This document shows positions 17,540-63,958 of a stretch of 64,000 bases of DNA, one piece after another (the first letter of the stretch is position 1; each line of letters begins with the position of its first letter). The notes under the pieces are model-generated. The model was given only the letters and a program-made list of their open reading frames with translations, was not told where the DNA came from and did no database searches. The stretch is from a virus (lineage: Duplodnaviria; Caudoviricetes): the IMG/VR virus record IMGVR_UViG_3300028805_000055, positions 89,680 through 153,679 of that record; one strand, 5' to 3'. Both the position numbers and the translations under genes were made by a program.

Positions 17540-17622
17540 AGACACGGGTGAGATTCGAACTCACGTACCTTTCGGTCAAAGCTTTTGCAGAGCCAGGCGA
17601 TTGACCACTCCGCCACCGTGTC
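17540..17622 (-). tRNA. tRNA-Cys(GCA), long variable arm
   Basis: GACACGG/CCGTGTC acceptor, U73, loop CTGCAAA, V-arm ACC-GAAA-GGT, GTGAG-TTCGAAT-CTCAC. Confidence 0.85.
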
Positions 17623-17696
17623 TTGTAAGTCCCGACACGTATTTCACAATAGACATCGGGACAATTAAAAGTAATAAAGATGAAAATTAAAAATGT

Positions 17697-18278
17697 TTAC
17701 TCGCCAGCTTTTGCGAAGCGTCCGTTGGCTGCTCTTTTAGGCTTTGGTTTCGCAGCCGTAGCTGGTCTCCTCGGACTAAGACGCTTTTTCGCAGGCTTGG
17801 GGGCAGCGTCAGCCTCCTTCTCCTTTACTTCGCCTGGAGCGATGACCTTGGGGATACCAATCGTAGCTGTCTTAGCAACAGTGTTGATGGTTTTCGTCAC
17901 CTTGGTCACATCACAGTTTGCTGGAATAATAACAGTTGTCTCGTTGCTACGAGAACTCGTCTCGTCATTATAAGTTACGACAACCTTCAGTTTGTTACCA
18001 TCGATGGTGTAATCAAGCTTTTCACCTATTGACTCGTCGAATGGTACTGTAACGGAGAAATCATTGAAGCTATCCTTAACTTGCTTCAGAAGCTCTCCGA
18101 AGTCCTTCAGAAGTGAGTTACCTCTCTCAATGATGGAGTCTCTTTTCTCTGCAAAGAAATCGAGCTGGGCATCCCAGTCGAAATTGTCGATAGACTCACC
18201 TATGCCGTTCACCAGGTCTCTGGCTTTCTTGGCACTAGAGTCAATCACACTAAGTAATGTGTCTCTAAAACCTCTCAT
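17697..18278 (-). CDS. Hsp20/alpha-crystallin-like protein with K/P/A-rich tail
   Basis: GNKLKV...IP.NCD..KV......ATIGIPK pattern. Confidence 0.55.
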   Translation of the reverse strand: MRGFRDTLLSVIDSSAKKARDLVNGIGESIDNFDWDAQLDFFAEKRDSIIERGNSLLKDFGELLKQVKDSFNDFSVTVPFDESIGEKLDYTIDGNKLKVVVTYNDETSSRSNETTVIIPANCDVTKVTKTINTVAKTATIGIPKVIAPGEVKEKEADAAPKPAKKRLSPRRPATAAKPKPKRAANGRFAKAGE

Positions 18279-18290
18279 ATCTTTTATATT

Positions 18291-18395
18291 TTAACCAATT
18301 AAAAACTTCACAACAACAAGCAGGACGATGGCAACTCCTAAGAAGCATGCCATAGCAATCTTGCCCAATGTTATCATATCAATTACATTTTTCAT
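18291..18395 (-). CDS. small membrane peptide (34 aa), leaderless
   Basis: MKNVIDMITLG...; ATG 4 nt after -7 box. Confidence 0.6.
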   Translation of the reverse strand: MKNVIDMITLGKIAMACFLGVAIVLLVVVKFLIG

Positions 18396-18397
18396 GC

Positions 18398-18431
18398 TGC
18401 AAAGATATATATTTTTTTTCGTAATTCCAAA
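18398..18431 (-). promoter_or_regulatory. Bacteroidota-type promoter
   Basis: TTTG..TATCTTTGCA. Confidence 0.8.
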
Positions 18432-18435
18432 TATT

Positions 18436-18978
18436 TTAGGAATTTTTTTTCTTATCGTATACAAAATGCTTGCTTCTCTCCACAGTAGTATGAGTTGTAA
18501 CCTCAATTTGTCCACCAGAAAGCTTAGTCACCTTGTCTGCTATGTTATGGAACTCCTTACCATGACCCCTTGCTGGCTTAGTGCCATTCATGTATGTGTA
18601 ATAGTGACACATTTCATGAACAAGAGTCACCATGAAAGCCCACTCACTACCACGCTTATTACCATTCAACTCAATTCTTGGCTGGGCTAGAAGATAAAAA
18701 TTATCGTGGTTGATGTGGGTAATAATTGTTGCAAGACCAAGCGGCGTATGCTTGATGAGACCGCCACCGTTTGTAACATTAACCCCACCAGTTAGTCTGA
18801 ACCACCCATTAGTTGCTCCTCTGCTTCCTCTTCCAGTTGTGAATACTTTAAAGTCACACTTTCCAAGAGCACCGCCAAACAGCTTCTCGTTGGCTTCATC
18901 ATATCTCCTGGACATCCACTCTACCGTAGGTCTGAAATCCCTGGTATTGTAATCCAATTCAAAACTAACTGTCTTCAT
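18436..18978 (-). CDS. SprT-like zinc metalloprotease
   Basis: TLVHEMCH..HGKEF; N..LFGG.L. Confidence 0.88.
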   Translation of the reverse strand: MKTVSFELDYNTRDFRPTVEWMSRRYDEANEKLFGGALGKCDFKVFTTGRGSRGATNGWFRLTGGVNVTNGGGLIKHTPLGLATIITHINHDNFYLLAQPRIELNGNKRGSEWAFMVTLVHEMCHYYTYMNGTKPARGHGKEFHNIADKVTKLSGGQIEVTTHTTVERSKHFVYDKKKNS

Positions 18979-19001
18979 TTCTTTATCTTTTAAAATTATG
19001 C

Positions 19002-19034
19002 TGCAAAGGTAGATAAAAAATCCGAAATAGCAAA
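19002..19034 (-). promoter_or_regulatory. Bacteroidota-type promoter
   Basis: TTTG..TACCTTTGCA. Confidence 0.75.
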
Positions 19035-19072
19035 ATTTTCGAAAAGAAATTTATATATTTTAACTCATCCAA

Positions 19073-19486
19073 CTATGGTATTTCTCTATTTGTGGTGTCA
19101 ATTACCATCACATTTTGGAGTCTGTCAACCATACCAACCAATCTCAAAAATCTATCCCTATATTTCTTGAGGTCATCCATATTGTGATATTCCTCCTCAA
19201 TAGAGTCACCACGCTCAAGTATCCTTTTCTGGCATACTTCTGGCTCAGCATCGACAATCACAAACAAAGTATTTCCATCAGTACCTTCCTCATAGAAGTA
19301 GTAAGGACCACAGTAGTACGAATCACGTCCGATTTTCCTCAGTTTTTCTTCGTTATCTGGGGTATGTATCAGCTTGTTCACATCGCCACCAAGGATTCCA
19401 ACCCTGTAATCGTTTGCGATTTTGTCTACAGAGTAATCCTTATACTGGAACTCAAAGTTTCCTCCACAATAGATTATCTTCTTCAT
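19073..19486 (-). CDS. apparent chimeric ORF; C-terminus like NMP-kinase lid, no P-loop
   Basis: VDAEPEVCQKRILERG..VIDT. Confidence 0.5.
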   Translation of the reverse strand: MKKIIYCGGNFEFQYKDYSVDKIANDYRVGILGGDVNKLIHTPDNEEKLRKIGRDSYYCGPYYFYEEGTDGNTLFVIVDAEPEVCQKRILERGDSIEEEYHNMDDLKKYRDRFLRLVGMVDRLQNVMVIDTTNREIP

Positions 19487-19833
19487 TACTCACAGCCTTC
19501 TACAAAATTGAACTGTTCCTTCTCACCGTCCCATTCGATAATGTCCTTCGTATATTGCTTCCAGTGTTCAACGTTGTTGATACTAGTGAACATACCACGA
19601 AGGTTAATCTCATAGCAAGCGTCATCACCCCACTCAGACTCAGCGTTTTCCCTAAGTTTCTCATTTGTCAGCCCTGGAGGTATTGGGAAAATACTCTTCT
19701 CGTTGAGTATATCTATCAATTTGTCAGTCTCAGTGCTGTTAAGTGGATGAACAACGAATCTCACACCATTGTCTATTGATGCGTCGATTATCCTTAATAA
19801 TTCACTTCTAAATGTTTTCATACTTATATTCAA
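19486..19833 (-). CDS. hypothetical protein
   Basis: 115-aa ORF. Confidence 0.7.
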   Translation of the reverse strand: MNISMKTFRSELLRIIDASIDNGVRFVVHPLNSTETDKLIDILNEKSIFPIPPGLTNEKLRENAESEWGDDACYEINLRGMFTSINNVEHWKQYTKDIIEWDGEKEQFNFVEGCE

Positions 19834-22609: not shown

Positions 22610-23116
22610 TCAAATCTGGTTTATTTCCTTAAGTCTCTTCCTGGTCTCGTCAAGAACCTTACCAAGCAAGTTCTGTCCCCTCCAGTTTGACTCGTCATCC
22701 AGGGCAGTAACTTCGTCACAGCCAATACCCCATAGTTGGTCCGTTGGGCTGGCTTCAACAAAGCCCTTGCCATCAAACTCCTCGCTGAGGATGGTCTTCT
22801 TAAGTTCCTCGTTCTGCGTGAACTTCAACAGGTTGGCATCAAGCATGATGCCAAACCTCTTCTCGTTCCACACCTTATCGTCGTAACCCTGTACCTTCCT
22901 ACCCATAGCCTTAGCTGTACGAGGGTTAGAACCGAACTTGACAATCTGTTCAGCCATCTTGGTGTCACCGAAGGTAACAGCCTTCATGAACATGAAATAC
23001 TGCTCGGAGTTATAGAACTTATACTCCTGTCCGTTTACTGTGGTGGTAAATGTGGCTGAATACCAATTGGAAGGCCACTCACCCCAAAAGAATACGTGCT
23101 TATCTGTTACTCTCAT
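22610..23116 (-). CDS. NADAR (YbiA-like) family protein
   Basis: SNWY, SEQYFM..KA, KFTQN, EASP.D..WGIG, GQNLLG. Confidence 0.93.
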   Translation of the reverse strand: MRVTDKHVFFWGEWPSNWYSATFTTTVNGQEYKFYNSEQYFMFMKAVTFGDTKMAEQIVKFGSNPRTAKAMGRKVQGYDDKVWNEKRFGIMLDANLLKFTQNEELKKTILSEEFDGKGFVEASPTDQLWGIGCDEVTALDDESNWRGQNLLGKVLDETRKRLKEINQI

Positions 23117-23459
23117 AATCTTTTACTTTTATTATTTGTTTCTTTTTTCTGTTATATCTTAATCCATGATTTAATAGAATTCTGGAGAATTCAAGTATAT
23201 CATTTATATTTGGTCTCATAAGTGCATCATACTGCGTATTGAAACCAAAGGAATTATAATAATCGTTATACTCGCCATTAAAGTCTACTAAGAAGTCTAC
23301 ACCAATAACGGCAGCATACCCAGAAGAATTTAAAATAATATTATTTTCATTAGGCCATATGACAAGCATATAGTTTCTTTCGTAGTCGCAATATGGTGTA
23401 ACTATCTTGACGATATCGCCTTCTTTTGGTATGAATTCCTTAATCATATCTTCTATCAT
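23100..23459 (-). CDS. hypothetical protein, leaderless
   Basis: 119-aa ORF; ATG 4 nt after -7 box. Confidence 0.7.
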   Translation of the reverse strand: MIEDMIKEFIPKEGDIVKIVTPYCDYERNYMLVIWPNENNIILNSSGYAAVIGVDFLVDFNGEYNDYYNSFGFNTQYDALMRPNINDILEFSRILLNHGLRYNRKKKQIIKVKDYESNR

Positions 23460-23461
23460 AG

Positions 23462-23495
23462 TGCAAAGGTATAAAAAAAACGTGAGATAACCAAA
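23462..23495 (-). promoter_or_regulatory. Bacteroidota-type promoter
   Basis: TTTG..TACCTTTGCA. Confidence 0.8.
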
Positions 23496-23579
23496 TATAA
23501 AATATTAATTTATGTTTTTTAAAAGTTAAATATTGTTATTTTTTGAAATGTTGTACTATTTATAATAAAAAGGTTTAGT

Positions 23580-24683
23580 ATGAAAAAAAGGAAATTAACC
23601 TATGAATTTTGTGAAAAGATAGCAAAACAATTCACAAGAAAAGTAGATTTCGAGAAATTTGATATGTCTGCTTATGTGACATCAGTTAGAAATGGATGGA
23701 TTAACAATTGGTTTGATAGGAAAATTAAACCAAAAAATTACTGGACATATGAGAAATGTGAAGAGTGTTCTAAACAGTTTAAATATTATACTGAATTTAG
23801 AGACTCAGAATATTTGTCAGTTTATTTAAAATCCAAAAAAAATAAATGGATTTATGACTGGGATTGGCTTATTAATGACCTTGCTGAATTTGATAAAGAC
23901 GCAAAAATACATTTAATTTACATCTATATTTTCAAAGATACAAACTATTTCTATGTTGGGAGAACTATGCAGTTAAAACAAAGAGATTATGCCCATAGGC
24001 ATAAAATAAGAAAAAGGCATGGAGAAATATATTTAGATGCTGTTCAAAAACATTCAAAAGAAAATAATATAGATATACCTCAACCAATTGTTCTAGAAGA
24101 ACATTTAACAGTTTCTGAGTCAAAAGAACAAGAGCATTTTTGGCTTGAACATTTTAAAAAGAAGGGTATGATTCCATTAAATACAGCTAAAACAGGAAAA
24201 AAATATAGTTCAATTGGAGGCGGCAGGCAAAAATGGACATATAATAGAGTATATGAAGAAGCTAAAAAATACCAGCATAGAGGGGAGTTTTATAATGGTT
24301 CTACACAAGCATATAGAGTTGCATTAAAATACAACTGGATAAATGATTATGATTGGATGACTTTAAATGGTACACCTCCAGGAACTTGGACATATGAAAA
24401 AGTTTATAGTGAAGCAATTAAATACAAACATAAAACTGATTTTAAGAAAAATTCTACACTAGCTTATTCAGCAGCTATAAGACATGATTTTATGAAGAAT
24501 TTTACTTGGTTTAAACGCCCTAAAAAAGAAAAAAAATATGATTTTAAAGAAGATGAAATGCTTTTAATTTTTAAAGAATATGTAACGAAAAAAGATTTTT
24601 ATACTAAGAATGATGCTTTATACAGATATGCATTAAAAGAACATAGAGAACTTTTAAATAAATATTATAAAAATAGGGGGTAA
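23580..24683 (+). CDS. free-standing GIY-YIG homing endonuclease with WTYE repeats
   Basis: LIYIY..FYVGRT..R...H, E..W, LN; AT-rich; only + strand gene. Confidence 0.85.
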   Translation: MKKRKLTYEFCEKIAKQFTRKVDFEKFDMSAYVTSVRNGWINNWFDRKIKPKNYWTYEKCEECSKQFKYYTEFRDSEYLSVYLKSKKNKWIYDWDWLINDLAEFDKDAKIHLIYIYIFKDTNYFYVGRTMQLKQRDYAHRHKIRKRHGEIYLDAVQKHSKENNIDIPQPIVLEEHLTVSESKEQEHFWLEHFKKKGMIPLNTAKTGKKYSSIGGGRQKWTYNRVYEEAKKYQHRGEFYNGSTQAYRVALKYNWINDYDWMTLNGTPPGTWTYEKVYSEAIKYKHKTDFKKNSTLAYSAAIRHDFMKNFTWFKRPKKEKKYDFKEDEMLLIFKEYVTKKDFYTKNDALYRYALKEHRELLNKYYKNRG

Positions 24684-24698
24684 TCAGCCCCCTATTTG
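24672..24698. terminator. hairpin spanning two convergent stop codons
   Basis: aaatagggg/cccctattt. Confidence 0.6.
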
Positions 24699-25916
24699 TT
24701 TAAGAAGATATTCACATTTTTCTTTATTACCAAGAGTTTTACCTTTGTCGTTTGAAAGTTTAACACAGTCATGCCACTCACGAAGTTCGGTGATTCGCAT
24801 TCCAACGAGTTTAATGACGATATTAGAATATGGGAACTTCTCCCCAGTTTCAGAATTGGTCACGTCAGCACAAAGGTGCGTTCCAATTCCATAGGAATCC
24901 TTCATACGCCCATTAAGCCACTCATGAAGTTCAATTGCCTTGTCAATGGTAAGAGCATTAGAGTAGACGATAGATTTTGTTGCTGGGTCAATGCCAAGCG
25001 ACTGATACTTTTCAATCATCTTTTCAGTCTCTTCTCTCTCGTCACCGCTATCAATGCGGATACCATCGAACATCTTAGCCATCTTCTTGGAGAAATTAGA
25101 TAAGAATACCTTAGAGCCGAAACAATCTGGAAGGAAAATACCAAGGTCTCCATCGTAAACGTCAGACCACTTCTTCATCACTTGATAGTTACACTCAAAA
25201 ATACCACTTACACATTCCTCAAAAGAACAAATCTGATGAGACATAGTTCCAATTGGAACAAGACCAAATTCTTTAGCAAACCAAACATTAGATGTACCAA
25301 CAATTTTTCCAGGATAGTCTTTTTCTTCTCCGTATTTTTTTGCTTCGGCTAATGCTTTCACCACATCATAGTGGTTTTGGAAATCAAACCTTCTTCTAGT
25401 TCCCATGTCACTAAGCAAAAGTCCATTCCTTAATGCTTTAATGCTTTTTTCCAATGTTTTTTTATATTCATTGTCCCTGTTAACCTTCTCAATATCGCCA
25501 TTGAGAATATGCATCAATTCAGAAATGGTAGAAAGAATTGGCATTTCCCACATGATGGTGGAATACCATTTACCTTCAATCATAATTGATAAATAGCCAC
25601 TTTGGTCTTGCAAGATATGTACATCAGATGGATTAAATCTGAAACCACGAAGGAAATTGTAATACCATTCTGGCAAGAAATAAACCTTTTTCTTCATGAA
25701 CTCAATTTCTTCTTCTGTGATAACAACATCCTTCATGGCGTTAATTTGTTCTTGGAGTAATTTACCAAACCCTTCTGGATAACGAGTATGGTTGCGGTCA
25801 AAGAATGAATACCTTACTTCCGCACGTGGATACGTCTGTAAGATGTAATACTGACAAGTAAATGTATAAAGGTCGTTGTCAGTAAAATGATTAATAATTC
25901 TTCTTATTTCTTTCAT
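24684..25916 (-). CDS. pncB: nicotinate phosphoribosyltransferase
   Basis: DNDLYTFT, DMGTRRR, GTSNV, GTMSH, RIDSGD, GIGT, KLSNDKGK. Confidence 0.95.
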   Translation of the reverse strand: MKEIRRIINHFTDNDLYTFTCQYYILQTYPRAEVRYSFFDRNHTRYPEGFGKLLQEQINAMKDVVITEEEIEFMKKKVYFLPEWYYNFLRGFRFNPSDVHILQDQSGYLSIMIEGKWYSTIMWEMPILSTISELMHILNGDIEKVNRDNEYKKTLEKSIKALRNGLLLSDMGTRRRFDFQNHYDVVKALAEAKKYGEEKDYPGKIVGTSNVWFAKEFGLVPIGTMSHQICSFEECVSGIFECNYQVMKKWSDVYDGDLGIFLPDCFGSKVFLSNFSKKMAKMFDGIRIDSGDEREETEKMIEKYQSLGIDPATKSIVYSNALTIDKAIELHEWLNGRMKDSYGIGTHLCADVTNSETGEKFPYSNIVIKLVGMRITELREWHDCVKLSNDKGKTLGNKEKCEYLLKQIGG

Positions 25917-25939
25917 GTTATTTAATGTTTAATGATAGC

Positions 25940-26347
25940 TTATTTTAAGCCTAGTTTCTTGATTTCAACAGTGGTTGTTTCACCTTTTAGTTTTCTGAGG
26001 GGGTAAACCTTGACTGGTTTTAGCCCATTAATACCTATAACGAAGTTATGACCCTGCATTGACCTCACATGACATATGATATTTCCCTTATATTGGTAGT
26101 GTTCCAAGGCAGCAACGAATTTAAACACATGTGGTCTGTTTACTGCCATAGCTTGTCTGTTAGTATTAAAACCATGTGACTTCTGTTTGCCAAAACCGAA
26201 AGCATTGAATGCAGTTGTGAAATTACTATAGTGTTCACCCCAGTCAGCCACTTCTACAAGGTCTCCTGGTCTAAAGGGAAATGTTTTGTAAAGTTTCTCG
26301 CCATTTTCAAGCTTATAGGTGAATTCAAGCTTACCATCGTTCATCAT
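25940..26347 (-). CDS. hypothetical protein
   Basis: 135-aa ORF. Confidence 0.75.
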   Translation of the reverse strand: MMNDGKLEFTYKLENGEKLYKTFPFRPGDLVEVADWGEHYSNFTTAFNAFGFGKQKSHGFNTNRQAMAVNRPHVFKFVAALEHYQYKGNIICHVRSMQGHNFVIGINGLKPVKVYPLRKLKGETTTVEIKKLGLK

Positions 26348-26579
26348 AATAATCCTCCTGTGGCTCTTCTACAACCTGTTGTGCGGGTTGGGTGTTATAC
26401 CTATCATACACAGCAGGTGCTACTTTTCTCTTATAATGAGACTGTGATGCTTCGCCAATCCAAGTTACGCTCTGGGTGCATCCAGCAACAGAGAGAACAA
26501 CGAGGATTACCTTGAATAGTGTCCTCGTTAAATCTCTCATAATCTCCTGGTCTAGAGACCTATCGTTTCTTTGTACCAT
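26331..26579 (-). CDS. small membrane/lipoprotein
   Basis: hydrophobic stretch ending VAGC. Confidence 0.6.
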   Translation of the reverse strand: MVQRNDRSLDQEIMRDLTRTLFKVILVVLSVAGCTQSVTWIGEASQSHYKRKVAPAVYDRYNTQPAQQVVEEPQEDYYDERW

Positions 26580-27457
26580 GTGTTAAACTCTTCAAATTCA
26601 TCATCAGTGAACTCACTACGCACACGCTGGTATTCAATATAGTCAACGTATTTAACCTTGACTATGATGCGATTACCACGTCCATCACACATAGGGATAA
26701 CAGGACGAGCCACAATACCTTCCTCAATAAGGGTTGGGTCAGCAGCCCTGTCAAACTTGGTTTTGAAGCCCTTCATAACCATCTGCTCAATGTCACGCAG
26801 GGTCATATTGCCGATATAAGGCACGGTCTCCAGCTTGAGTGTCTTGCACATTTCGTCACGCATATCCTTTGGCAACCACCAGCCCTGCTGACGAATGTCG
26901 AATACAAGGAAGCCATTGCCATTCTGTATATAGCGTCCACCACCCTTCTGAACACCAGAGCCGAAGTACTCGCCATAGATGTAGATGGGGACTTCCTCAA
27001 GGCCGACGATATATTGTCCGTCCTTTGATGGGTTAACCTTTGTAATGTCAAGTGGGTCAACCATATTACAGTTCCAGTACTCTATCTTATTGGTCTCCTT
27101 GTCTTTCACCTGTGTGAAACGTGCTGTCTCTTTCGGGAACATAGCACGAAGCATAGGATGGATGCGGTCAGCAATCTCCTGGAGCATTTCGAACTGTCCA
27201 TGCTGTGAGGTTGCATTGTCTGACTTACCGCCTACTTTGATGACACCAGTAGAGGGGTAGAAAGCAATCTTGGAGTTAGTACCGTCAATCTTGCTGTATG
27301 CCTCCCACAGGTTGTCAAACAGATACTTAGCCTCGATGTTTGAGAACTCACCAAGGATAATCTTGTTTCTGAACTTTAACCACTTCTGGTTGGGGCATTC
27401 ATCACCCTTGAACTGATACCTCTTATACATGGTATCGATTTTTGTATATGTCTCCAT
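26552..27457 (-). CDS. RNA ligase (Rnl2-like) family protein
   Basis: KIDGTN, YGEYFG, FDI, EGIVARP, KVK. Confidence 0.85.
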   Translation of the reverse strand: METYTKIDTMYKRYQFKGDECPNQKWLKFRNKIILGEFSNIEAKYLFDNLWEAYSKIDGTNSKIAFYPSTGVIKVGGKSDNATSQHGQFEMLQEIADRIHPMLRAMFPKETARFTQVKDKETNKIEYWNCNMVDPLDITKVNPSKDGQYIVGLEEVPIYIYGEYFGSGVQKGGGRYIQNGNGFLVFDIRQQGWWLPKDMRDEMCKTLKLETVPYIGNMTLRDIEQMVMKGFKTKFDRAADPTLIEEGIVARPVIPMCDGRGNRIIVKVKYVDYIEYQRVRSEFTDDEFEEFNTWYKETIGL

Positions 27458-27461
27458 TATT

Positions 27462-27788: not shown

Positions 27789-27790
27789 GG

Positions 27791-27824
27791 TGCAAAAGTA
27801 AGCAGAATTTTCGAGATAACCAAA
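27791..27824 (-). promoter_or_regulatory. Bacteroidota-type promoter
   Basis: TTTG..TACTTTTGCA. Confidence 0.75.
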
Positions 27825-29345: not shown

Positions 29346-30755
29346 TTACACAGTCAGAGTTCTCAGCTTAGCCTCTACGACCTCGAAACACTCATCCTTT
29401 GACATATTAGGATTCTCGATATAAGCCTCCTTAACTGCCTCCAGGAGTATACCTACGTTAGGACCTTTCTTAATCTTGAACTCGGTCATGATGTCGTTTC
29501 CGTCGATAGGGAGCTTAAGGTTTACCAGTTTGTCAACCTCGTCCAGCTCTTCAATTCTCTTTAAGACATCAAGCACCTGGGTCTTCTTCTTGTTGAAGAC
29601 TTTATGCACGTTGTTGGCATGCATCAAGTCCATAGTCACTGCAAGGTTGTCACCACAAGAGTTTATCAGCTTTCTGATTTTCTTGTCTGGTGGCAGGAAT
29701 CCATCAGTATAGGTAGAGAACCACTCATGGTGTCTGATAGCCACACACACAGACTTGATGACATCGTTAGGGAGCTTCATTTTTTTAAGGTCAGACTCAG
29801 CAACCTCAGCACTAAACTGGTTGGGTGATACAGTCCTGTCGTTGGCTGTAGCTATCCTACCAACATCGTGAAACAATGCAGCCAATCTGTGCTCCTCATA
29901 AGGTTCTACAGCGTCCAGCACTTCCATTGTATGGTCAAACGTTGTAATAACAGGGTTCTTACACTCGAATGCATGACGCATATCACTGATGTCTGGCATA
30001 ATGATATCCAAGAGGCCACAGTAGAACATCTTACGAACACCGACACTTGCATTGGCTGAGCAGATGATTTTCAGAACTTCATCCGTGATTCTCTCCTGTG
30101 ATACAATCTTAATTCTGTTGGCGTTCTTAACCATACCAAGCCATGTATCCTTTTCGATTCCCCATCCATATCGACAAGAGAATCTAATGACTCTGAGGAT
30201 TCTCAGTGGGTCATCACAGAAGGTAATATCTGGGTCGGCAGGAGTCCTTATAATCTGGTTGGTAATGTCGTATAAGCCAGTTCCGTTGTAGTCGTAAATC
30301 TTACCGTCTGATATGTTGTAGTACAGCGAGTTGATGGTAAGGTCACGTCTCTTGGCATCCTCCTGGATAGTACCGTAGCACGTCTCTGGATTGTGACTGT
30401 CCTTGTGGTATTGCTCCTTTCTGGTCTGCACACACTCCAGCTCCATACCCTCACACTCTGGGTCATTATAGAACTGTACCTTTGCAGTGCCGTAGGTCTC
30501 GAATACAACAGGGTTAGAACCAGACTTATAGGAATCATCCTTTATGGCTACAAAGTTAGCAAAGCTAAGACCACCATTCTTCTCTTCAACAACAATGTCG
30601 ATATCCTTTACAGGCTGTCCTAGTATCAAGTCACGGACACAACCACCAACATAATACACCTTACCCTCGAAGTAGTTGCCTTTAATCATTTCTTCCAACT
30701 TCTTCGTCACTGCAATTATCTTCTTATCAGCGTTTTTAAACAGTATCTCGTTCAT
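29346..30755 (-). CDS. cca: CCA tRNA nucleotidyltransferase (HD domain)
   Basis: VGGCVRD, DIDI, RRDLTIN, DDPLRILR, ERI, HD. Confidence 0.92.
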   Translation of the reverse strand: MNEILFKNADKKIIAVTKKLEEMIKGNYFEGKVYYVGGCVRDLILGQPVKDIDIVVEEKNGGLSFANFVAIKDDSYKSGSNPVVFETYGTAKVQFYNDPECEGMELECVQTRKEQYHKDSHNPETCYGTIQEDAKRRDLTINSLYYNISDGKIYDYNGTGLYDITNQIIRTPADPDITFCDDPLRILRVIRFSCRYGWGIEKDTWLGMVKNANRIKIVSQERITDEVLKIICSANASVGVRKMFYCGLLDIIMPDISDMRHAFECKNPVITTFDHTMEVLDAVEPYEEHRLAALFHDVGRIATANDRTVSPNQFSAEVAESDLKKMKLPNDVIKSVCVAIRHHEWFSTYTDGFLPPDKKIRKLINSCGDNLAVTMDLMHANNVHKVFNKKKTQVLDVLKRIEELDEVDKLVNLKLPIDGNDIMTEFKIKKGPNVGILLEAVKEAYIENPNMSKDECFEVVEAKLRTLTV

Positions 30756-30772
30756 TCGAAAATCATTTTTGG

Positions 30773-30806
30773 TGCAAAGATATAAAAAAAATCTGAGACT
30801 ACCAAG
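30773..30806 (-). promoter_or_regulatory. promoter with overlapping hairpin
   Basis: CTTG..TATCTTTGCA; ATCTGGGATT/AGTCTCAGAT. Confidence 0.75.
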
Positions 30807-30834
30807 TAACAATCCCAGATTTAATATTATTTAA

Positions 30835-46277: not shown

Positions 46278-46362
46278 TAGCGTAAGCTGGATTCGAACCA
46301 GCGGCAGTGTTTCCACTAACGACTTATGAGACCGCCCCAATTGGCCACTCTGGCATTACGCT
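46278..46362 (-). tRNA. tRNA(CAT), long variable arm
   Basis: AGCGTAA/TTACGCT, A73, CTCATAA, V-arm TAGTG-GAAA-CACTG. Confidence 0.85.
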
Positions 46363-49448: not shown

Positions 49449-49537
49449 TGGCTGGGGCGGGACTCAAACCCGCAACTATCTTGCGATAGACCTGCTTAGG
49501 AGGCAGGGACGGTCATTCGATTACGTTTTACCCAGTC
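49449..49537 (-). tRNA. tRNA-Arg(CCT), long variable arm
   Basis: CCTGC-CTCCTAA-GCAGG, V-arm CTATC-GCAA-GATAG, GCGGG-TTTGAGT-CCCGC. Confidence 0.8.
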
Positions 49538-52039: not shown

Positions 52040-52125
52040 TGAGCGTAGTGGGATTCGAACCCACGTAGCCTTATCGCCATAATAGTTTTAGAGACTATCC
52101 CAATCGACCTCTCTGGCATACGCTC
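52040..52125 (-). tRNA. amber suppressor tRNA(CTA), long variable region
   Basis: GAGCGTA/TACGCTC, A73, ATAGT-CTCTAAA-ACTAT, GTGGG-TTCGAAT-CCCAC. Confidence 0.88.
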
Positions 52126-55400: not shown

Positions 55401-55521
55401 CAGGGACAGAAGGATTTGAACCTCCGTCGTTTATCCTTTTCCAAACATCAACACTTCCCGAAGTCCGTGTATATACGAATGGAATCGTAACAAATTATTC
55501 TAACCGCTAAACTATATCCCT
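55401..55521 (-). tRNA. tRNA with ~50-nt insertion in anticodon loop (Arg-ACG?)
   Basis: AGGGATA/TGTCCCT, normal D and T arms, long hairpin insert. Confidence 0.7.
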
Positions 55522-55535
55522 ATAAAAATACAAAA

Positions 55536-56399
55536 GACTGAGAACTTTGTCTTATTGTGGATGCCTTTTCACAACGGTTGGACGTTGCTGTTCACACGCC
55601 ACCTTACGATGGACGTAGACACCATGCACAATAGTTTTGCGAAAACTACTAAACACTTACTGGTTTAAACCTTTCGGTACAGAATCATAACATTCATTTC
55701 ACCACCAAGCTCTTGCGGATTCACTGGATGCCTCCAGCTAACTCAGATGACTACTTTTACTCGTTCATCGGATTCCTTGCGAGTCCCCGATGCCTCCATA
55801 TTGCAGGAGAGATAAGTGCATTTTATCTGCCCAGTGTCGCACACTTTCGCTTTTAATATTTATTTTAAAAGACGACAGGATTCGAACCTGTAACACTCGG
55901 ATTAACAATCTGATGCTCTACCGTTGAGCTACACTTCCACAACTAACGGAAGACGAGGTGCGACCCTTAGCATCCGTGCCTTTTGAGCACAGCCCACTAA
56001 ATCGCCTTCCTATGCCAAGACCACCACAGTCCTGTAGCACCGATACACACTCTCAGCCTTACGGTTCTTAACGCTTATAGACTACGCATTTCACGTTAAG
56101 ACGATTGTGTATCTGAATCCAACCCGCCAACTGGTGACTATTGAATCGGATTCAACAGAGTAATCTATTGTATCGCTACTCAACCAAAGCTGTTAACCTT
56201 GGTAGCACGTCGCACTGCATTTACCGACAGAACTCCGTGCCGTACCCTGTTCTTTTCAGTGAAATGCCCTGGTTTTCCAGAACATCTGAGTCGGGTTAGT
56301 TGCCAATATCCGTCTCATTTATCCCATCACTGGATTATCCTTATGGCTACGAAAGCTAGCCGTTCTTCCTCGTTTTCAGCCGAAGCCTACAACGTGAGA
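55536..56399 (-). ncRNA. large structured RNA, GOLLD-like, with embedded degenerate tRNA-Asn
   Basis: ~860 nt without a credible ORF, many GNRA hairpins, within tRNA cluster. Confidence 0.5.
55867..55938 (-). pseudogene. degenerate tRNA-Asn(GTT)
   Basis: D, AC (TTGTTAA) and T arms present; acceptor mostly G-U or mismatched. Confidence 0.65.
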
Positions 56400-57184: not shown

Positions 57185-57261
57185 TGGTAGCGGCACACAG
57201 GAGTCGCACCTGGTGTTTTTTGCTTATGAGACAAACGTGTAAACTGTTTCACTCTGCCGCT
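57185..57261 (-). tRNA. tRNA-Met(CAT), atypical T-loop, encoded CCA
   Basis: AGCGGCA/TGCCGCT-A-CCA, CTCATAA, TGCGACT. Confidence 0.8.
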
Positions 57262-57264
57262 ATA

Positions 57265-57753
57265 TTAACTGAATATTTTTTTCTTGTCTTCATCAGAGAG
57301 TTGACCACTATCAAACTCCCAATGGTGATTAGGACATAATGCAACTAGATTATTTATATCATTTATTTCTGAGACTAAACTATCATTACTGAATTCAGAT
57401 ACACCCTTTATGTGAGCAATCTCAATATGCTTATTATATCCGCATATTGCACATTCTCTAGGTTTATTAGACCTTTTGAAAATAGAATCAGCTAATTTTC
57501 TAATTGCTGTTCTAGCACTCTGCCAGTTTTTCCTACACCCAAACAATTCACCCTTGGTCATATTAAGTATCGGAGAGTTGTATTCAAGATTCAGTTCAAC
57601 ACCTAATGCTTTACATCTTTCCAATATTTTGTTATGAATTTTGAATGCCCTGCTAGAGTATCCCAAAGCTTCATTAACACCCTTCCAAGTTGTGTTGGCT
57701 TTTATTATTCTACAGAAATCTTCATCAGATGTTCTATATAATTTATCTACCAA
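57265..57753 (-). CDS. HNH endonuclease
   Basis: CAIC, AHIK, N.INNL..LCPNHH; TTG start only. Confidence 0.85.
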   Translation of the reverse strand: MVDKLYRTSDEDFCRIIKANTTWKGVNEALGYSSRAFKIHNKILERCKALGVELNLEYNSPILNMTKGELFGCRKNWQSARTAIRKLADSIFKRSNKPRECAICGYNKHIEIAHIKGVSEFSNDSLVSEINDINNLVALCPNHHWEFDSGQLSDEDKKKIFS

Positions 57754-58176: not shown

Positions 58177-58207
58177 TTTTTCAGAAGAAATTTTTCATCT
58201 TTTTTTG

Positions 58208-58581
58208 TGGAGCTGGTGGAAGTCGAATCCACGTCACAATTACCATCCCATAAGAGATTATACAAGCTTCTAGAGAATTGGTAAGTGGCTTGCGCCACCT
58301 TTCCTCTCTGCCACCTCATTTTTAAGAAACGAGGAAAACTGGGGGATTGACCAGAGGTCTATCCCAGCATGACCACCACTTGGTTTCTTGACACCAAGAA
58401 ACAAGTCACCAGGATGTTCTGTTCCTAAGAGCCTGGTCTCTCGGCTTCGCTTACGCTGCTACAGCGTATGCATAAGCAGGAGAATCTACGTTCTCGCCAT
58501 TTATGTTTTTTCGCTATTTCTAGTGTATGCCCACTGCTTGTCTCTTACCAGACGCATAACGTTCTATACCGTTTCAGCCCC
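58208..58581 (-). ncRNA. ssrA: tmRNA
   Basis: GGGGCTG/CAGCTCC-A, T-arm, ATAAAT resume context, tag GENVDSPAYAYAVAA*. Confidence 0.93.
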
Positions 58582-58973: not shown

Positions 58974-59531
58974 TTATCGGAATGCACCAATGAACTGCTT
59001 TAGTATGTCCTTACGCTTAAGGACGCTTTCTGGAACGAAATCCTTAATCCATTCAGAGTTATCACTAATTCCTTCTCTCACCTTTGTTGCCGATATGTTA
59101 TCAGCGATAGTGCCTCTGGCATTCAACTTGAAGGAAACGAAGTTCCTTGTGATGAATGGTGGAAACCACAACATGATAATCTCGAACCCATCAGAATAGT
59201 AGATGGTAAACTCTGGAGACCTGGTGATACCAACAATCTTACTGTAGAGATAGAATCCCCAATCGTGAGAGTTGTCAGATTCATCCGTAAGGTCATCAAG
59301 TGGCTCGATGCGCACCCTATTAGCATCCTCTCCAAACGTCTGGTGTACAGCCTCAACTGCCATGTCCAGCCTTAGGTTAATCGGAATTGGATTCCTCTTA
59401 TTGAGTTTATCAGCAGAACCAACGAGAACAAGAACTGTGTCGTTCTCATTGAGTGCCTGGCGAATCAACTCCAGATGCCCGTTGTGAATGGGCTGCAAAC
59501 GTGCTATAATAACACCTACCTTTTCTGTCAT
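58974..59531 (-). CDS. NMN adenylyltransferase (NadM-like)
   Basis: ARLQPIHNGH, VGSA..RNP, ISATKVR. Confidence 0.85.
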   Translation of the reverse strand: MTEKVGVIIARLQPIHNGHLELIRQALNENDTVLVLVGSADKLNKRNPIPINLRLDMAVEAVHQTFGEDANRVRIEPLDDLTDESDNSHDWGFYLYSKIVGITRSPEFTIYYSDGFEIIMLWFPPFITRNFVSFKLNARGTIADNISATKVREGISDNSEWIKDFVPESVLKRKDILKQFIGAFR

Positions 59532-59554
59532 AATTATATACGTTTTCAAAAAAC

Positions 59555-59620
59555 GGAAGCAATCTTTTTAGAAAAAATGATTACAAGTCAAATCCTATAA
59601 GAAATCTGCTGTACGCTTCC
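59555..59620 (-). ncRNA. ACAGCA-type element (TGT loop)
   Basis: GGAAGCG/TGCTTCC, TACAGCAG, TGA-CTTGTAA-TCA. Confidence 0.65.
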
Positions 59621-59621
59621 T

Positions 59622-59700
59622 TGGTAGGACATGGGGGGTTCGAACCCTCGACCTTCTGCTTGTAAGGCAGACGCTACTGAACCAGCTGAGCTAATGTCCT
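59622..59700 (-). tRNA. tRNA-Val(TAC), encoded CCA
   Basis: AGGACAT/ATGTCCT-A-CCA, TCTGC-CTTACAA-GCAGA. Confidence 0.92.
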
Positions 59701-60005
59701 ATAAAATACGTGGTATCACTCGAAACTGCCTGTCATTGGACAAGCTTGCCTTACCTTCTTATGGTAAATTATAACCACGTGTCACAACCAGTAGCCAAAT
59801 GAGGGCTAAAAGGTTGCCTCCAATTTTTTTCGTGTTATAAAAATCGTAAACCGTCTCCCAGTCTTAATCGTAGCTTGGGTCACGCCATGTCTATTCCACA
59901 GTGCCATTCGAGTAGTGGGATATGCCGCCTTATGTTTTACTCTAGAAACCCACCATTAGATAGTCATCAACCTCTTTCCGAAGTTGGAGGTATATATCCT
60001 ACCAT

Positions 60006-60147
60006 GCCCTTGCAGTGAGGATTCGAACCTACTATTTCTAGTTGCCGCATAGTCTCAGCTATTACCAGCATGAGGGACTTATTCAGCTCCTTGTTAAACA
60101 CAAGTACTTTGCCCTCCTAGTGCGCTTCCTATTCGCCTTTCAAGGAT
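60006..60147 (-). ncRNA. tRNA-like RNA with ~70-nt structured insertion at anticodon loop
   Basis: CCTTG/CAAGG, GCG..CGC D-arm, CTAG/CTAG stem, AGG-TTCGAAT-CCT. Confidence 0.55.
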
Positions 60148-60421
60148 GATGCAAGTCCAACCACGTAGAAATAGGCTTTACTTGCGTGAGAGTTTGATGC
60201 ACTTCAGTCTATAAAGGTGCAATTTGTGGTACTCACAAACACAGTGTTTCTTCGCAAAAACTACAAAAAGCCCCCATTTCTAGATGATGGGATAACTGTC
60301 CGTCTCTTCCGAACTGTCATTCTAGTGGATGCATAATTGCTAGACGCTGCCAGCCCATCTAGCGCACCTTTCTACGGTATTCATACCCTTTCCGAAGTCA
60401 GAGTTATATAGCTCCGTATTG

Positions 60422-60507
60422 TGCCTGGGGTGGGATTTGAACCCTCCTATCTCTGTCTCTGCTTTTGGCTTCGAATCAGTGTTTTTACCAATTAATACTT
60501 CTCAAGC
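60422..60507 (-). pseudogene. degenerate tRNA with expanded anticodon arm
   Basis: GCTTGAG/CCCAGGC, TTGGTAA D-loop, TTCAAAT T-loop. Confidence 0.55.
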
Positions 60508-60691
60508 ATTTTGGGACCGTTTGTTTTAAGTGTGACTCAGCCTTTCAACAAGACCCGATTACGGTTCTCTTGTTCCACTATAACTTTGGCATGAACTTCC
60601 TATCCATAAATGCCACATCCAGACTCCATCTAAACTTCATCCTTCTCCAACATATATGTCACCGACAGGCTCGATGCCATAATCTTTCTGG

Positions 60692-60787
60692 TTACTTACC
60701 AAACCATCCTGCGACGGTATCAGCAATTGGCTCTTTATACTTGTGACCGAACCAACCCAGTGCTATGAATACTACTGCTTCAATCAT
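60692..60787 (-). CDS. small peptide (31 aa)
   Basis: MIEAVVFIALGWFGHKYKEPIADTVAGWFGK, behind promoter. Confidence 0.6.
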   Translation of the reverse strand: MIEAVVFIALGWFGHKYKEPIADTVAGWFGK

Positions 60788-60823
60788 AATTTTTTACTTT
60801 TAAGTTGAACTTCTGTTTAACGG

Positions 60824-60857
60824 TGCAAAGATATATATTTTTTTTCGTAATTCCAAA
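60824..60857 (-). promoter_or_regulatory. Bacteroidota-type promoter
   Basis: near-identical to 57805 copy. Confidence 0.85.
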
Positions 60858-60881
60858 TTTTCAGCAAGTTTTTTTCAACTT

Positions 60882-61334
60882 TTAACATACTAGGTCTTTC
60901 ACTAAGCTTGAGTCACCATGACTCGTCTGTAGGATGCTCCTAATTGCCGTACTACTTATATAAGATAAGGTATTAGGCGTTGGTATCACCAGGGTTGGCA
61001 TCTTTCCCAAGTTCCAGTTTATGTCAGCCTGAGCAACTTCATCTGTGAAGTCTGTACCATTCCTAGCACCCTTGATGATAAACTTAGCACCAATCTCTTG
61101 TGCCTTCTTGAATACCAACCCATCAGTGCTGATAACCTTTACACGAGGCTCATCCTTGAAGATTGCCTCAATCATCCTCACTCGTGCTACAGGCTCGAAA
61201 TAACCCTTCTTTAGATGGTTTATAGCAACGCATACGTAGACTTCATCGAAGACCTGTAATGCAGCATTCACAACGAACCTATGCCCTTTATGGAATGGGT
61301 CAAAGCTTCCTGGAAATAATGCTATATTCTTCAT
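60882..61334 (-). CDS. coaD: pantetheine-phosphate adenylyltransferase
   Basis: FPGSFDPFHKGH, N..KK..F...R, KG.R...DF..E, ISS. Confidence 0.9.
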   Translation of the reverse strand: MKNIALFPGSFDPFHKGHRFVVNAALQVFDEVYVCVAINHLKKGYFEPVARVRMIEAIFKDEPRVKVISTDGLVFKKAQEIGAKFIIKGARNGTDFTDEVAQADINWNLGKMPTLVIPTPNTLSYISSTAIRSILQTSHGDSSLVKDLVC

Positions 61335-61561: not shown

Positions 61562-61647
61562 CTCGTCGGGTGCGATTCGAACACACGGTAGCGCAAAGCT
61601 ACACTAGTTTTGGAGACTAGCGGGTTAAACCACTCCCCCACCGACGA
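61562..61647 (-). tRNA. tRNA-Trp(CCA), long variable arm
   Basis: TCGTCGG/CCGACGA, G73, CTAGT-CTCCAAA-ACTAG, V-arm GTAGC/GCTAC. Confidence 0.85.
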
Positions 61648-62989: not shown

Positions 62990-63024
62990 TTTTTCTCAAT
63001 CTTTTTTTCATTTTTTAATATTTG

Positions 63025-63108
63025 AGCTAGAGACAGGATTCGAACCTGCGTGGGATTTTTACCTTTGGATTACGAAACCAACCTATTCAACCACTCTAGC
63101 ACTCTAGC
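63025..63108 (-). tRNA. tRNA-Thr(CGT), long variable region
   Basis: GCTAGAG/CTCTAGC, U73, TTCGTAA loop, 15-nt V region. Confidence 0.85.
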
Positions 63109-63110
63109 AT

Positions 63111-63137
63111 ATCGTTTTACCACTTAACTATAGAGTC
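63111..63137 (-). pseudogene. orphan tRNA 5' fragment
   Basis: GACTCTA-TA-GTT-AAGTGGTAA-AAC. Confidence 0.5.
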
Positions 63138-63138
63138 A

Positions 63139-63561
63139 TTATTTAAACTCCTCTTCATCATACTGGTCTCCCATTATCTTCTCATACCAAGTATCAAGGA
63201 TGTATTCTGGAGTCCAAGATAAACCATTACGGTGGTTAAAACAATTCTGGATATATTTAATCTGCTCCAGGGTTGGCTTGTGAAGGTTGGGATATAACAG
63301 GTTGAACAATCCACTTCCACGAAATACGTCATCGTCTCTCACTTCCAATATGATGTCGTCGTATTGCCTGTATTCGTTTTCACTTTCTACATACACATAT
63401 CCGATTACTCTCACCTTATACTTGGTGATGTTAGTGTGAATAACCTCTTTTACAACACCCTTAAGGATGATGGTGTGGTCATATTCATACTCGATGTTGT
63501 GAACCACATCGTATACCTCATAATTAAAGACGATTGTATCGCCCACTTTCTTCTCCTTCAT
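63139..63561 (-). CDS. hypothetical protein
   Basis: 140-aa ORF. Confidence 0.75.
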   Translation of the reverse strand: MKEKKVGDTIVFNYEVYDVVHNIEYEYDHTIILKGVVKEVIHTNITKYKVRVIGYVYVESENEYRQYDDIILEVRDDDVFRGSGLFNLLYPNLHKPTLEQIKYIQNCFNHRNGLSWTPEYILDTWYEKIMGDQYDEEEFK

Positions 63562-63577
63562 AACATTCTACCTTTTG

Positions 63578-63649
63578 AGCCTTATGCCAGAATCGGACTG
63601 ACAACCACTACAATACCACAGTAGTGCTCTACCATTGAGCTAATAAGGC
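63578..63649 (-). tRNA. tRNA-Thr(GGT)
   Basis: GCCTTAT/ATAAGGC, U73, GGT anticodon, T-loop TCCGATT. Confidence 0.8.
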
Positions 63650-63656
63650 ATTCTTG

Positions 63657-63738
63657 AGCTGGGGACAGGATTCGAACCTGCGTTGTCTTTCGAACATGAT
63701 TACAAATCAAGTGCCTTCAACCTCTCAGCCACCCCAGC
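63657..63738 (-). tRNA. tRNA-Thr(TGT), long variable region
   Basis: GCTGGGG/CCCCAGC, U73, TTTGTAA loop, 13-nt V region. Confidence 0.85.
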
Positions 63739-63789
63739 AAGTAAGGGTACATTAAAACCGTCATTTCAACCCCTCCAGTTTATATTATG

Positions 63790-63875
63790 TTGCGGAGGGG
63801 GGAGTCGAACCCACGTTACACACAAATTTAAAGTCTGCTCGAATGTAATATTAATCTTGCTGTATGTACCCACAA
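63790..63875 (-). ncRNA. ACAGCA-type tRNA mimic (TTA loop)
   Basis: TACAGCAAG, GCAGA-CTTTAAA-TTTGT, GGG-TTCGACT-CCC. Confidence 0.65.
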
Positions 63876-63876
63876 G

Positions 63877-63958
63877 TGCATCGTGTAGGACTCGAACCCA
63901 CGTCGTGATTACTCACACAGATTAAGAGTCTGTTGCATAACCTCTCTGCCAACGATGC
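63877..63958 (-). tRNA. tRNA-Lys(CTT), long variable arm
   Basis: GCATCGT/ACGATGC, A73, ACAGA-CTCTTAA-TCTGT, V-arm GTGA-GTAA-TCAC. Confidence 0.87.

Follow-up and report, generated by a model that had tools for sequence, protein, structure and literature searches.

Eight transfer RNA (tRNA) genes that join a long variable arm to anticodons of mostly short-armed tRNA classes lie in the window, by which we mean the whole 64-kb stretch analysed here, the final 64 kb of a 153,679-bp IMG/VR viral contig (IMGVR_UViG_3300028805_000055). Bacterial long variable arms are normally confined to the tRNAs for Leu, Ser, Tyr and Sec, whereas these genes carry anticodons for Cys, Arg, Trp, Thr (twice) and Lys, together with CAT and the amber-reading CTA. 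We consider it somewhat probable that they are working phage tRNAs, charged with the amino acid that the anticodon specifies, to which a distinct body is useful; their expression, cognate charging and selective benefit we infer from the features described below. The long-arm design itself is common in large phages and rare in cells.

ARAGORN calls seven of the eight genes, and all seven score well above the Rfam tRNA gathering score of 29 bits (Table 1); the eighth, a divergent Arg-CCT-like gene, falls below that threshold and has clear relatives, so that an earlier note on this DNA was right to list eight tRNAs with variable regions of 13–17 nt. The seven called genes share a 7-bp acceptor stem, a 5-bp T stem, T8-G9, a 3-bp D stem, a D loop of 9–11 nt with the motif GAG[T/A]GG (G13 A14 G15 Y16 G18 G19) and a canonical 7-nt anticodon loop with Y32-U33 and A37-A38 (CU-NNN-AA or UU-NNN-AA). 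The variable arm has a stem of 3–5 bp in six of the eight and of only ~2 bp in Thr-CGT and Thr-TGT, and its loops read, in the order of Table 1, GAAA, GAAA, GCAA, GATAAG, TTTGC, A-rich, GAAA and GTAA; none of the eight copies the cognate anticodon loop there. The two long Thr tRNAs have their T arm in common and are thus paralogues, and their discriminator is the same as that of the short Thr-GGT tRNA. The sequence of the CAT tRNA appears compatible both with Met and with Ile2 (the latter after lysidine modification). None of the eight genes encodes CCA (the 3′ flank is N73-C-A/T), and a CCA-adding enzyme would therefore be needed or useful.

The Arg-CCT gene is probably a real but divergent member of this set, to judge from its fold and its relatives. 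It receives no ARAGORN call and 21.5 bits from Rfam (E 0.045, 400-nt search), has an A2xC71 mismatch, T8-A9, a T loop reading TTTGAGT and a D arm unlike that of the other seven, and lacks G18-G19 and C56. It nevertheless folds as a cloverleaf (z -2.4), its D arm and 5-bp GCAA variable hairpin recur in a long Arg-ACG tRNA (89 nt, ARAGORN-called) of the related phage G001, and a short Arg-CCT tRNA of another relative, G005, has the same T loop and acceptor. The T8-G9 and class II D loop that the earlier note ascribed to most of the set are found in seven of the eight members and not in Arg-CCT, and the discriminator bases given there for Cys, Trp, Thr and Lys were all confirmed.

To characterize the identity elements of the long-arm tRNAs we drew on a comparison set of 1,518 distinct phage tRNAs, in which long-arm forms match short-arm forms of the same anticodon in the discriminator and the top acceptor pairs. 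G73 is present in 58 of 59 long Trp tRNAs, which have a weak 1:72 pair (A1-U72, G·U or U-A), and in 25 of 27 short ones; U73 in 9/9 long and 22/24 short Cys tRNAs; C2-G71 in 29/30 long Thr tRNAs (with U73 or A73) and 62/72 short ones; and C73 in 5/6 long and 21/31 short His tRNAs. The Ser tRNAs of the same set are marked by G73 (59/76), G1-C72 (69/76), G2-C71 (71/76) and A3-U70 (66/76), a signature that none of the eight window tRNAs carries, G73 alone being found in Trp. Furthermore, a naive-Bayes classifier trained on ordinary phage tRNAs, and given only the seven acceptor pairs and N73, placed the cognate amino acid first for 51% of 257 long-arm tRNAs and among the first three for 72%, compared with 57% and 79% for ordinary tRNAs in leave-one-out runs (chance, 5%); the cognate class outranked the best of Ser, Leu and Tyr in 77% of the long-arm tRNAs. 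Within the window, the cognate class ranked first for Cys, CAT (as Met) and Thr-TGT and third for Trp, Thr-CGT and Lys, and Ser ranked 16th to 20th for Cys (16th), CAT, Trp, Lys and CTA and 4th for both Thr tRNAs. As a control, the classifier called Ser for the chromosomal Ser-like CCA tRNAs described below. Discriminator and acceptor pairs thus track the anticodon, as the earlier note had stated, and not Ser.

The same genes and features recur in five close relatives (G001–G005; 105–412 kb, with 31–43 tRNAs each). Lys-CTT is identical in G001, and in G002 its entire variable hairpin is swapped for a different GNRA-capped hairpin; Thr-TGT differs from its G001 orthologue by one base; the G002 orthologue of Cys has compensatory changes in the variable stem; long CAT tRNAs of 82–90 nt occur in G002, G004 and G005; and Trp has orthologues in all five relatives, with a covarying variable stem. 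Alignment of the 59 distinct sequences of the long-arm Trp family showed the acceptor, D, anticodon and T stems to be 92.5–99.7% paired, with 23 of 25 pairs varying on both sides, values reached by none of 500 shuffles and by no slid register; the 3-bp D stem is 99.4% paired, with covariation in all three pairs. The variable-stem columns of the same MAFFT alignment are 51% paired, a figure made uninformative by register shifts between subfamilies, and this stem was judged instead by folding each sequence and comparing orthologues. Of 258 long-arm tRNAs with anticodons other than those for Leu, Ser and Tyr, 78% form a variable hairpin of 3 bp or more (minimum free energy -2.77 vs -0.73 kcal/mol for shuffled sequences), and GNRA loops make up 54% of the hairpin loops, compared with 32% in the Leu, Ser and Tyr tRNAs that these phages carry. 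The earlier proposal of cognate tRNAs on a class II body, and not of decay, is supported by covarying stems and by identity elements that track the anticodon, both for the tRNAs of the window and for related phage tRNAs numbering several hundred.

To place the design among phages and cells, we scanned public collections for a Trp pattern that combines a GAGWGG D loop, a Trp anticodon loop and a T loop 23–32 nt downstream (class II spacing). It was present in 75 viral contigs, of which 48 measure 100 kb or more and the largest 554 kb, with ARAGORN calling a long Trp-CCA tRNA in 72. Among 185,579 prokaryotic species, each represented by a single genome (596 Gb in all), there were 39 matches, ~23 of them real tRNAs. 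Long-arm Trp forms are thus not routine in cellular genomes, and the refuting condition that the earlier note had set, routine long-arm forms in host genomes, fails. The ~23 cellular tRNAs fall into two groups. One lies inside phage-like tRNA clusters binned into metagenome-assembled genomes and has Trp-type acceptor ends; the other consists of single chromosomal genes that join the anticodon CCA and a long arm to an acceptor end of Ser type (G1-C72, G2-C71, G73), found in Pelagibius, Saccharibacteria, an alphaproteobacterium, Planctomycetaceae, Pyrinomonadaceae and Dehalococcoidia (loci L084, L085, L088, L094, L104 and L113; also L089, L090 and L100). By their acceptor ends the latter are a class distinct from the phage long-arm Trp tRNAs, and they are candidate Ser-charged readers of UGG. 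A corresponding long-arm Cys pattern was found in at least 117 viral contigs, and of the 74 distinct sequences among the matches listed, 69 have U73. An Ile/Met/Thr/Asn/Lys pattern was likewise found in at least 117 viral contigs (long forms among the matches listed: Asn 45, Lys 32, Thr 25, Met 19, Ile 16). The published Prevotella phage Lak-A2 (MK250019.1), whose record is without annotation, has a 92-nt long-arm tRNA-Trp (A1-U72, G73; L294:15828 region) and an 81-nt tRNA-Cys with U73 and the same class II D arm (L295:2836 region). Such near-restriction to phages argues for a phage-specific benefit.

The geometry of the arm indicates which class II body is involved. Phage Ser tRNAs have a 19-nt variable region with a 6-bp stem and 1/1 unpaired bases on its 5′/3′ sides, Leu tRNAs 15 nt, 4 bp and 1/2, and Tyr tRNAs 14 nt, 3 bp and 1/3; the long-arm tRNAs with other anticodons have 16 nt, 3–4 bp and 1/3–4, and most members are therefore of Tyr type, not Ser type. 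TyrRS requires both the anticodon and A73, which makes a Tyr-type body suitable for reuse under a new anticodon, whereas Ser and Leu bodies would keep their identity whatever anticodon they bore, hence causing mistranslation. SerRS and LeuRS do not read the anticodon (PMC5389517).

Private phage synthetases for the long-arm tRNAs were considered and rejected for most families: no CysRS, class IIa (Thr/Ser/Pro/His/Gly), Lys/Asp/Asn, MetRS, Glu/GlnRS or ArgRS enzyme was found in the contig itself or in G001–G004 (three of these genomes being 95–100% complete). Of the eight families tested only TyrRS was found, as one full-length bacterial-type copy in each of G001–G004 (TIGR00234, 329–385 bits in G001–G003; Pfam, 264 bits in G004) with a C-terminal S4-like, arm-binding domain. 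Charging of the long-arm tRNAs for Trp, Cys, Thr, Lys, Met, Gln and Arg would accordingly depend on host enzymes, and the lack of private synthetases lends indirect support to cognate charging; the phage TyrRS could serve the phage tRNA-Tyr, the CTA suppressor or both.

The CTA tRNA deserves separate treatment. Like the CAT tRNA it has a D arm close to that of the relatives' tRNA-Tyr, and it carries U35-A36, so that on sequence grounds it could be a Tyr, or possibly a Leu, suppressor, perhaps served by the phage TyrRS; its long arm would then be unremarkable. The claim that these genes carry short-arm-class anticodons accordingly stands for most of them, and CTA may not belong. TAG recoding as the purpose of this tRNA was rejected: TAG terminates 35 of the contig's 232 crude gene calls, and neither the contig nor the complete relatives G003 and G004 use in-frame TAG or have more in-frame TAG joins than expected. 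Open reading frames of the contig tile normally under code 11, and reading TAG as sense lengthens them no more than reading TGA as sense, in keeping with the standard genetic code.

We propose that each long-arm tRNA would read the codons of its own anticodon after charging by the cognate synthetase of the host (that for Cys, Met or Ile, Arg, Trp, Thr or Lys). The common chassis would be a class II body in which U8-G9 and a D stem of 3 bp go with a D loop of GAGUGG type and a short variable hairpin under a GNRA cap, its arm having in most members the geometry of bacterial tRNA-Tyr (one unpaired 5′ base, a 3–4-bp stem and 3–4 unpaired 3′ bases); it may have spread through large-phage tRNA arrays by duplication, with remodelling of the anticodon and acceptor end. 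Transcripts, which lack CCA, would be completed by the CCA-adding enzyme that the phage also encodes. The likeliest benefit, and the least certain step, is that the arm would set the phage tRNA supply structurally apart from the host isoacceptors, such that body-reading host tRNA defences, or host shutoff made by the phage, would treat phage and host tRNAs differently. A broader version of this proposal, which strikes us as possible rather than probable, holds that large phages keep a parallel tRNA set for at least ten amino acids on a Tyr-type class II chassis, charged correctly by the host and distinguishable to tRNA-targeting enzymes. These enzymes could be host anticodon nucleases, acceptor-end toxins, body-reading effectors of the Schlafen, PARIS or retron type, or the phage's own machinery for destroying host tRNA. 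If so, translation supply would be insulated from immunity, and the set would prove, by an example from nature, that a long variable arm is acceptable to most bacterial synthetases.

Several observations weigh against the cognate, beneficial reading. The classifier is correct only about half the time and ranks the cognate amino acid only third for the window's Trp, Thr-CGT and Lys tRNAs, and the Arg-CCT member is sub-threshold in Rfam, without G18-G19 and C56. The Trp tRNA of this clade combines G73 with a Ser-like arm (one unpaired base, 5 bp, one unpaired base), and it may be shielded from SerRS, if at all, only by its acceptor pairs U1-A72, C2-G71 and G3-C70. The variable arm is, in addition, dispensable in some lineages: the variable region measures 5, 8, 8, 16–17 and 22 nt among CTA orthologues that are alike in their acceptor, D and T arms, and Lys-TTT paralogues in G002 and G005 have the class II D arm and a 6-nt variable loop. 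Finally, the anticodon loops are canonical and do not differ from those of the short paralogues in G001. Nucleases of PrrC or colicin type, which recognize the anticodon stem-loop alone, would therefore not be escaped, and the evasion of host anticodon nucleases suggested in the earlier note could concern only enzymes that read the tRNA body, elbow or variable region.

This lability bears directly on the possibility that charging is cognate and the arm non-adaptive, inherited from a class II ancestor or inserted and tolerated by indifferent synthetases, EF-Tu and ribosome, with its tidy hairpin kept, once present, to avoid disturbing folding. We think this unlikely. Viral CTA tRNAs with this D loop are long in 8 of 36 cases, Arg-CCT is long in the window and short in G005, and Lys-CTT has a 15-nt variable region compared with the 6 nt of Lys-TTT. 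The hairpin sequence is freely replaced, with only pairing and the GNRA cap kept, and G001 holds long together with ordinary short copies of Trp, Thr-TGT and Lys-CTT. Such resizing among orthologues and paralogues implies that the phage-specific unit is the class II-type core, on which the arm is gained, lost and resized. However, the design is very rare in cells and yet frequent and deeply conserved in phages, from the Lak megaphages to this clade, a restriction that pure neutrality leaves unexplained. The long form is, moreover, the sole Cys tRNA in G002–G004 and the sole Trp tRNA in G002–G005 (in the stretches examined), and in several complete genomes it is the only phage copy.

Deliberate mistranslation, in which SerRS, LeuRS or TyrRS would charge these bodies and deliver Ser, Leu or Tyr at Cys, Trp, Thr, Lys, AGG and amber codons, appears distinctly improbable. 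It draws on the indifference of SerRS and LeuRS to the anticodon (PMC5389517), on the U8-G9 of Ser/Leu type and D loops of Ser/Tyr type, and on the G73 and Ser-like arm of the clade's Trp tRNA; for the CTA tRNA, with A73, a Tyr-like D arm, U35-A36 and TyrRS genes in the relatives, charging with Tyr or Leu is quite possible. Against it stand acceptor ends and discriminators that are cognate-like and un-Ser-like, with Ser in the lowest ranks for Cys, CAT, Trp, Lys and CTA, and arms that mostly have 3–4 bp and 3–4 unpaired 3′ bases where Ser has 6 bp and one. The phage also uses the codons concerned normally under the standard code, and with Trp and Cys tRNAs that are sole phage copies it would poison its own proteins. 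The mischarging by SerRS or LeuRS after the manner of allo-tRNAs that the earlier note had entertained is therefore disfavoured.

More improbable still is a role outside translation, as decoys or sponges for host enzymes that cut or modify tRNA in defence, or as regulators, with no use by the ribosome. Canonical anticodon loops are what a decoy would be expected to have, and the region does contain non-standard tRNA-shaped RNAs (46180–46250 and 55401–55521) and a GOLLD-like RNA (all described below). Yet the long-arm tRNAs have the full 7/5 cloverleaf and EF-Tu-compatible T loops, they conserve N73 and pairs 1:72 to 3:70, positions relevant only to aminoacylation, and the sole Trp and Cys copies of complete relatives fit a supply role. 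That the genes are decaying pseudogenes or tRNA-finder artefacts is scarcely credible and already largely refuted for seven of the eight, which score 47–56 bits with intact stems and compensatory substitutions across phages from many samples, even if Arg-CCT falls short of the Rfam threshold without conserved D- and T-loop bases and a neighbouring Cys-like element (46180–46250) has lost its acceptor stem.

Table 1. Long-variable-arm tRNA genes of the window, with genes for tRNA maturation, RNA repair and translation. Positions refer to the window unless a contig or locus is named.
Feature	Position	Strand	Length	Variable region	Other sequence features	Support
tRNA-Cys(GCA)	17540..17622	-	83 nt	14 nt (3-bp stem, GAAA loop)	U73	ARAGORN; Rfam 48 bits
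tRNA(CAT)	46278..46362	-	85 nt	16 nt (4-5-bp stem, GAAA loop)	A1-U72, A73, Tyr-like D arm	ARAGORN; Rfam 47.6 bits
tRNA-Arg(CCT)-like, divergent	49449..49537 (best placement)	-	89 nt	17 nt (5-bp stem, GCAA loop)	A73	
Amber suppressor tRNA(CTA)	52040..52125	-	86 nt	17 nt	A73, Tyr-like D arm	ARAGORN; Rfam 56.2 bits
tRNA-Trp(CCA)	61562..61647	-	86 nt	17 nt (5-bp stem)	U1-A72, G73	ARAGORN; Rfam 51.9 bits
tRNA-Thr(CGT)	63025..63108	-	84 nt	15 nt	G1-C72, C2-G71, U73	ARAGORN; Rfam 53.8 bits
tRNA-Thr(TGT)	63657..63738	-	82 nt	13 nt (2-bp stem, GAAA loop)	G1-C72, C2-G71, U73	ARAGORN; Rfam 55 bits
tRNA-Lys(CTT)	63877..63958	-	82 nt	15 nt (4-bp stem, GTAA loop)	A73	ARAGORN; Rfam 55.6 bits
RNA ligase	26552..27457	-				Pfam RNA_ligase 1e-14; PHROG RNA ligase 2.5e-20
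CCA-adding enzyme (tRNA nucleotidyltransferase + HD domain)	29346..30812	-			RNA-binding, tRNA_NucTran2_2 and HD domains (Pfam)	Pfam PolyA_pol 1.5e-25; PHROG tRNA nucleotidyltransferase 1.8e-60
Metallophosphoesterase-like protein	31605-33029				In RNA-repair/counter-defence-type gene cluster	
tmRNA (transfer-messenger RNA), phage-encoded, among tRNA genes	58207-58581	-			Tag peptide GENVDSPAYAYAVAA	Rfam 65.6 bits
RlaP-type RNA-repair nucleotidyltransferase	Contig G000:24503-25711, upstream of window					
TyrRS of relative	L248:1943-3232	-				
TyrRS of relative	L249:2065-3354	-				
TyrRS of relative	L250:2214-3491	+				

The contig as a whole has a CheckV completeness of ~52%, which at its length implies a jumbo phage with a genome of roughly 300 kb. 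Most genes lie on the minus strand, and ARAGORN finds 14 tRNAs and one tmRNA in the window, which Rfam confirms while adding a few weak ones. Genes of RNA-repair or counter-defence type occupy 22610–33029, 43776–44456 and 58974–61334. RNA ligases are RNA end-joining enzymes of the type that phages use for mending cut tRNAs. Genes for NAD-related metabolism or salvage in the neighbourhood encode an NAPRTase, a NADAR protein, a NUDIX protein, two NMNAT-like cytidylyltransferases and a protein with a weak isochorismatase-like match. Such a neighbourhood, with RNA ligase, CCA-adding enzyme, NAD salvage, tmRNA and RlaP, fits a phage that expects attacks on its tRNAs. HNH homing-endonuclease-type genes at 52129–52824 (-) and 57265–57753 (-) adjoin tRNA genes, the first adjoining the CTA suppressor, and suggest mobile-element traffic within the tRNA region. 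Pfam detected no Pth2-like gene around 53.7–54.4 kb. As to the host, one 919-aa protein has a distant match to Prevotella Lak phages (38.6% identity over 28% of its length), and the same search returned matches to Maribacter and Synechococcus phages; a Bacteroidota host is plausible from this distant Lak-phage kinship.

Other RNA elements lie among these genes. A GOLLD-like large RNA at 55535–56010 (-) is a full-length match to Rfam RF02032 (72.4 bits, E 3.6e-18) that does not reach the gathering score of 150, and a tRNA-Asn(GTT) at 55867–55938 sits inside its variable region. The tRNA-like gene at 55401–55521 (-; 121 nt, Rfam tRNA 39.9 bits) has normal acceptor, D and T arms and ~60 nt in place of the anticodon arm; ARAGORN in intron mode reads it as Arg-TCG with an intron, and its fold is not better than shuffled (z -0.3). 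Directly downstream of the long CAT tRNA, a tRNA-shaped element at 46180–46250 (-; partial Rfam match, 34.7 bits) combines a normal T arm and a variable hairpin capped by GTAA with a Cys-like loop, CTGCAAA; it lacks a standard acceptor stem and D arm and is closed instead by a GGGAAC/GTTCCC helix. A weak third CAT tRNA is found at 57189–57261 (-; 32.5 bits, A1-U72, odd D arm). The reverse anomaly, a short body under a class II anticodon, is seen in a 69-nt class I-like tRNA with the Ser anticodon UGA at 54640–54708 (-; 27 bits, below threshold), and a converse oddity is also common in phage loci L001–L230, where 52 distinct tRNAs with Leu anticodons measure less than 81 nt and every one has A73.

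Taken together, large phages, published Lak megaphage genomes included, depart systematically from the textbook confinement of the long arm to the tRNAs for Leu, Ser, Tyr and Sec, which helps account for the 'mismatched isotype' and 'undetermined' tRNA calls in huge phages. If charging is cognate, a class II body is acceptable to the synthetases for Trp, Cys, Thr, Lys, Asn, His, Met, Gln and Arg alike. Such tRNAs could be natural scaffolds for tagged or orthogonal tRNAs in synthetic biology. Should the arm insulate phage tRNAs from tRNA-targeting immunity, the tRNA body, and not just the anticodon loop, would be contested in phage–host conflict.

Among known tRNAs, the phage genes most resemble canonical class II tRNAs, above all tRNA-Tyr (also Ser and Leu), in the 7/5 cloverleaf, 3-bp D stem, GAGUGG-type D loop and variable hairpin, and their arm geometry (one unpaired base, 3–4 bp, 3–4 unpaired bases) matches that of phage and bacterial tRNA-Tyr. 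They differ in bearing Cys, CAT, Arg, Trp, Thr and Lys anticodons (in the relatives also Asn, His, Gln and others) and acceptor and discriminator elements that are not those of Tyr, Ser or Leu. With the class I isoacceptors (Trp, Cys, Thr, Lys, Met, Arg) they share the anticodon loop, the discriminator, the top acceptor pairs and, presumably, the decoding role, whereas their variable region is 13–17 nt instead of 4–5 nt, they have a 3-bp D stem and G9, and their class II-type core is almost confined to phages. Nematode nev-tRNAs, associated with Hamashima et al. 2016, reportedly also join a variable arm to class I anticodons, with charging that follows the body (Leu or Ser) and not the anticodon. 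Those tRNAs are eukaryotic, while the acceptor ends seen here argue for cognate charging.

The allo-tRNAs and selC* tRNA-Cys (Mukai et al. 2017, PMC5389517) likewise combine a long arm with non-Leu/Ser/Tyr anticodons, come from metagenomes and occur in some cases in phages. Both kinds are built with 8/4 or 9/3 acceptor/T branches, and allo-tRNAs also have a tRNA-Sec-like D arm (long stem, tetraloop) and Ser identity (G73, or U73 plus the arm) (PMC5389517), as opposed to the 7/5 branches, 3-bp D stem, 9–11-nt D loop and cognate-type acceptor ends found here. Phage tRNAs are known to rescue infection from tRNA-cutting defences, as with T5 tRNA-Lys against PARIS, phage tRNA-Tyr against retron/PtuAB and the anticodon-loop variants of mycobacteriophages (PMC10264068, PMC11555353, PMC13056530). 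The long-arm tRNAs are similar in being phage-encoded counterparts of specificities that the host already has, in a genome that also carries genes for RNA repair and counter-defence; the published cases, however, use changes in the anticodon loop or stem, whereas the tRNAs described here keep canonical loops and differ in their body and variable arm. Variable arms are not mentioned in PMC10264068, the Lak phage papers discuss tRNA introns and not variable arms, and no description of 7/5 long-arm non-Leu/Ser/Tyr phage tRNAs was found in full-text searches on tRNA variable arms and on Lak megaphages, so that a large, phage-wide class of long-arm tRNAs has apparently gone undescribed. A 7/5 class II body of Tyr geometry that carries cognate identity for many amino acids sets this class apart from allo-tRNAs and selC*, from nev-tRNAs and from loop-altered phage tRNAs, none of which matches it.

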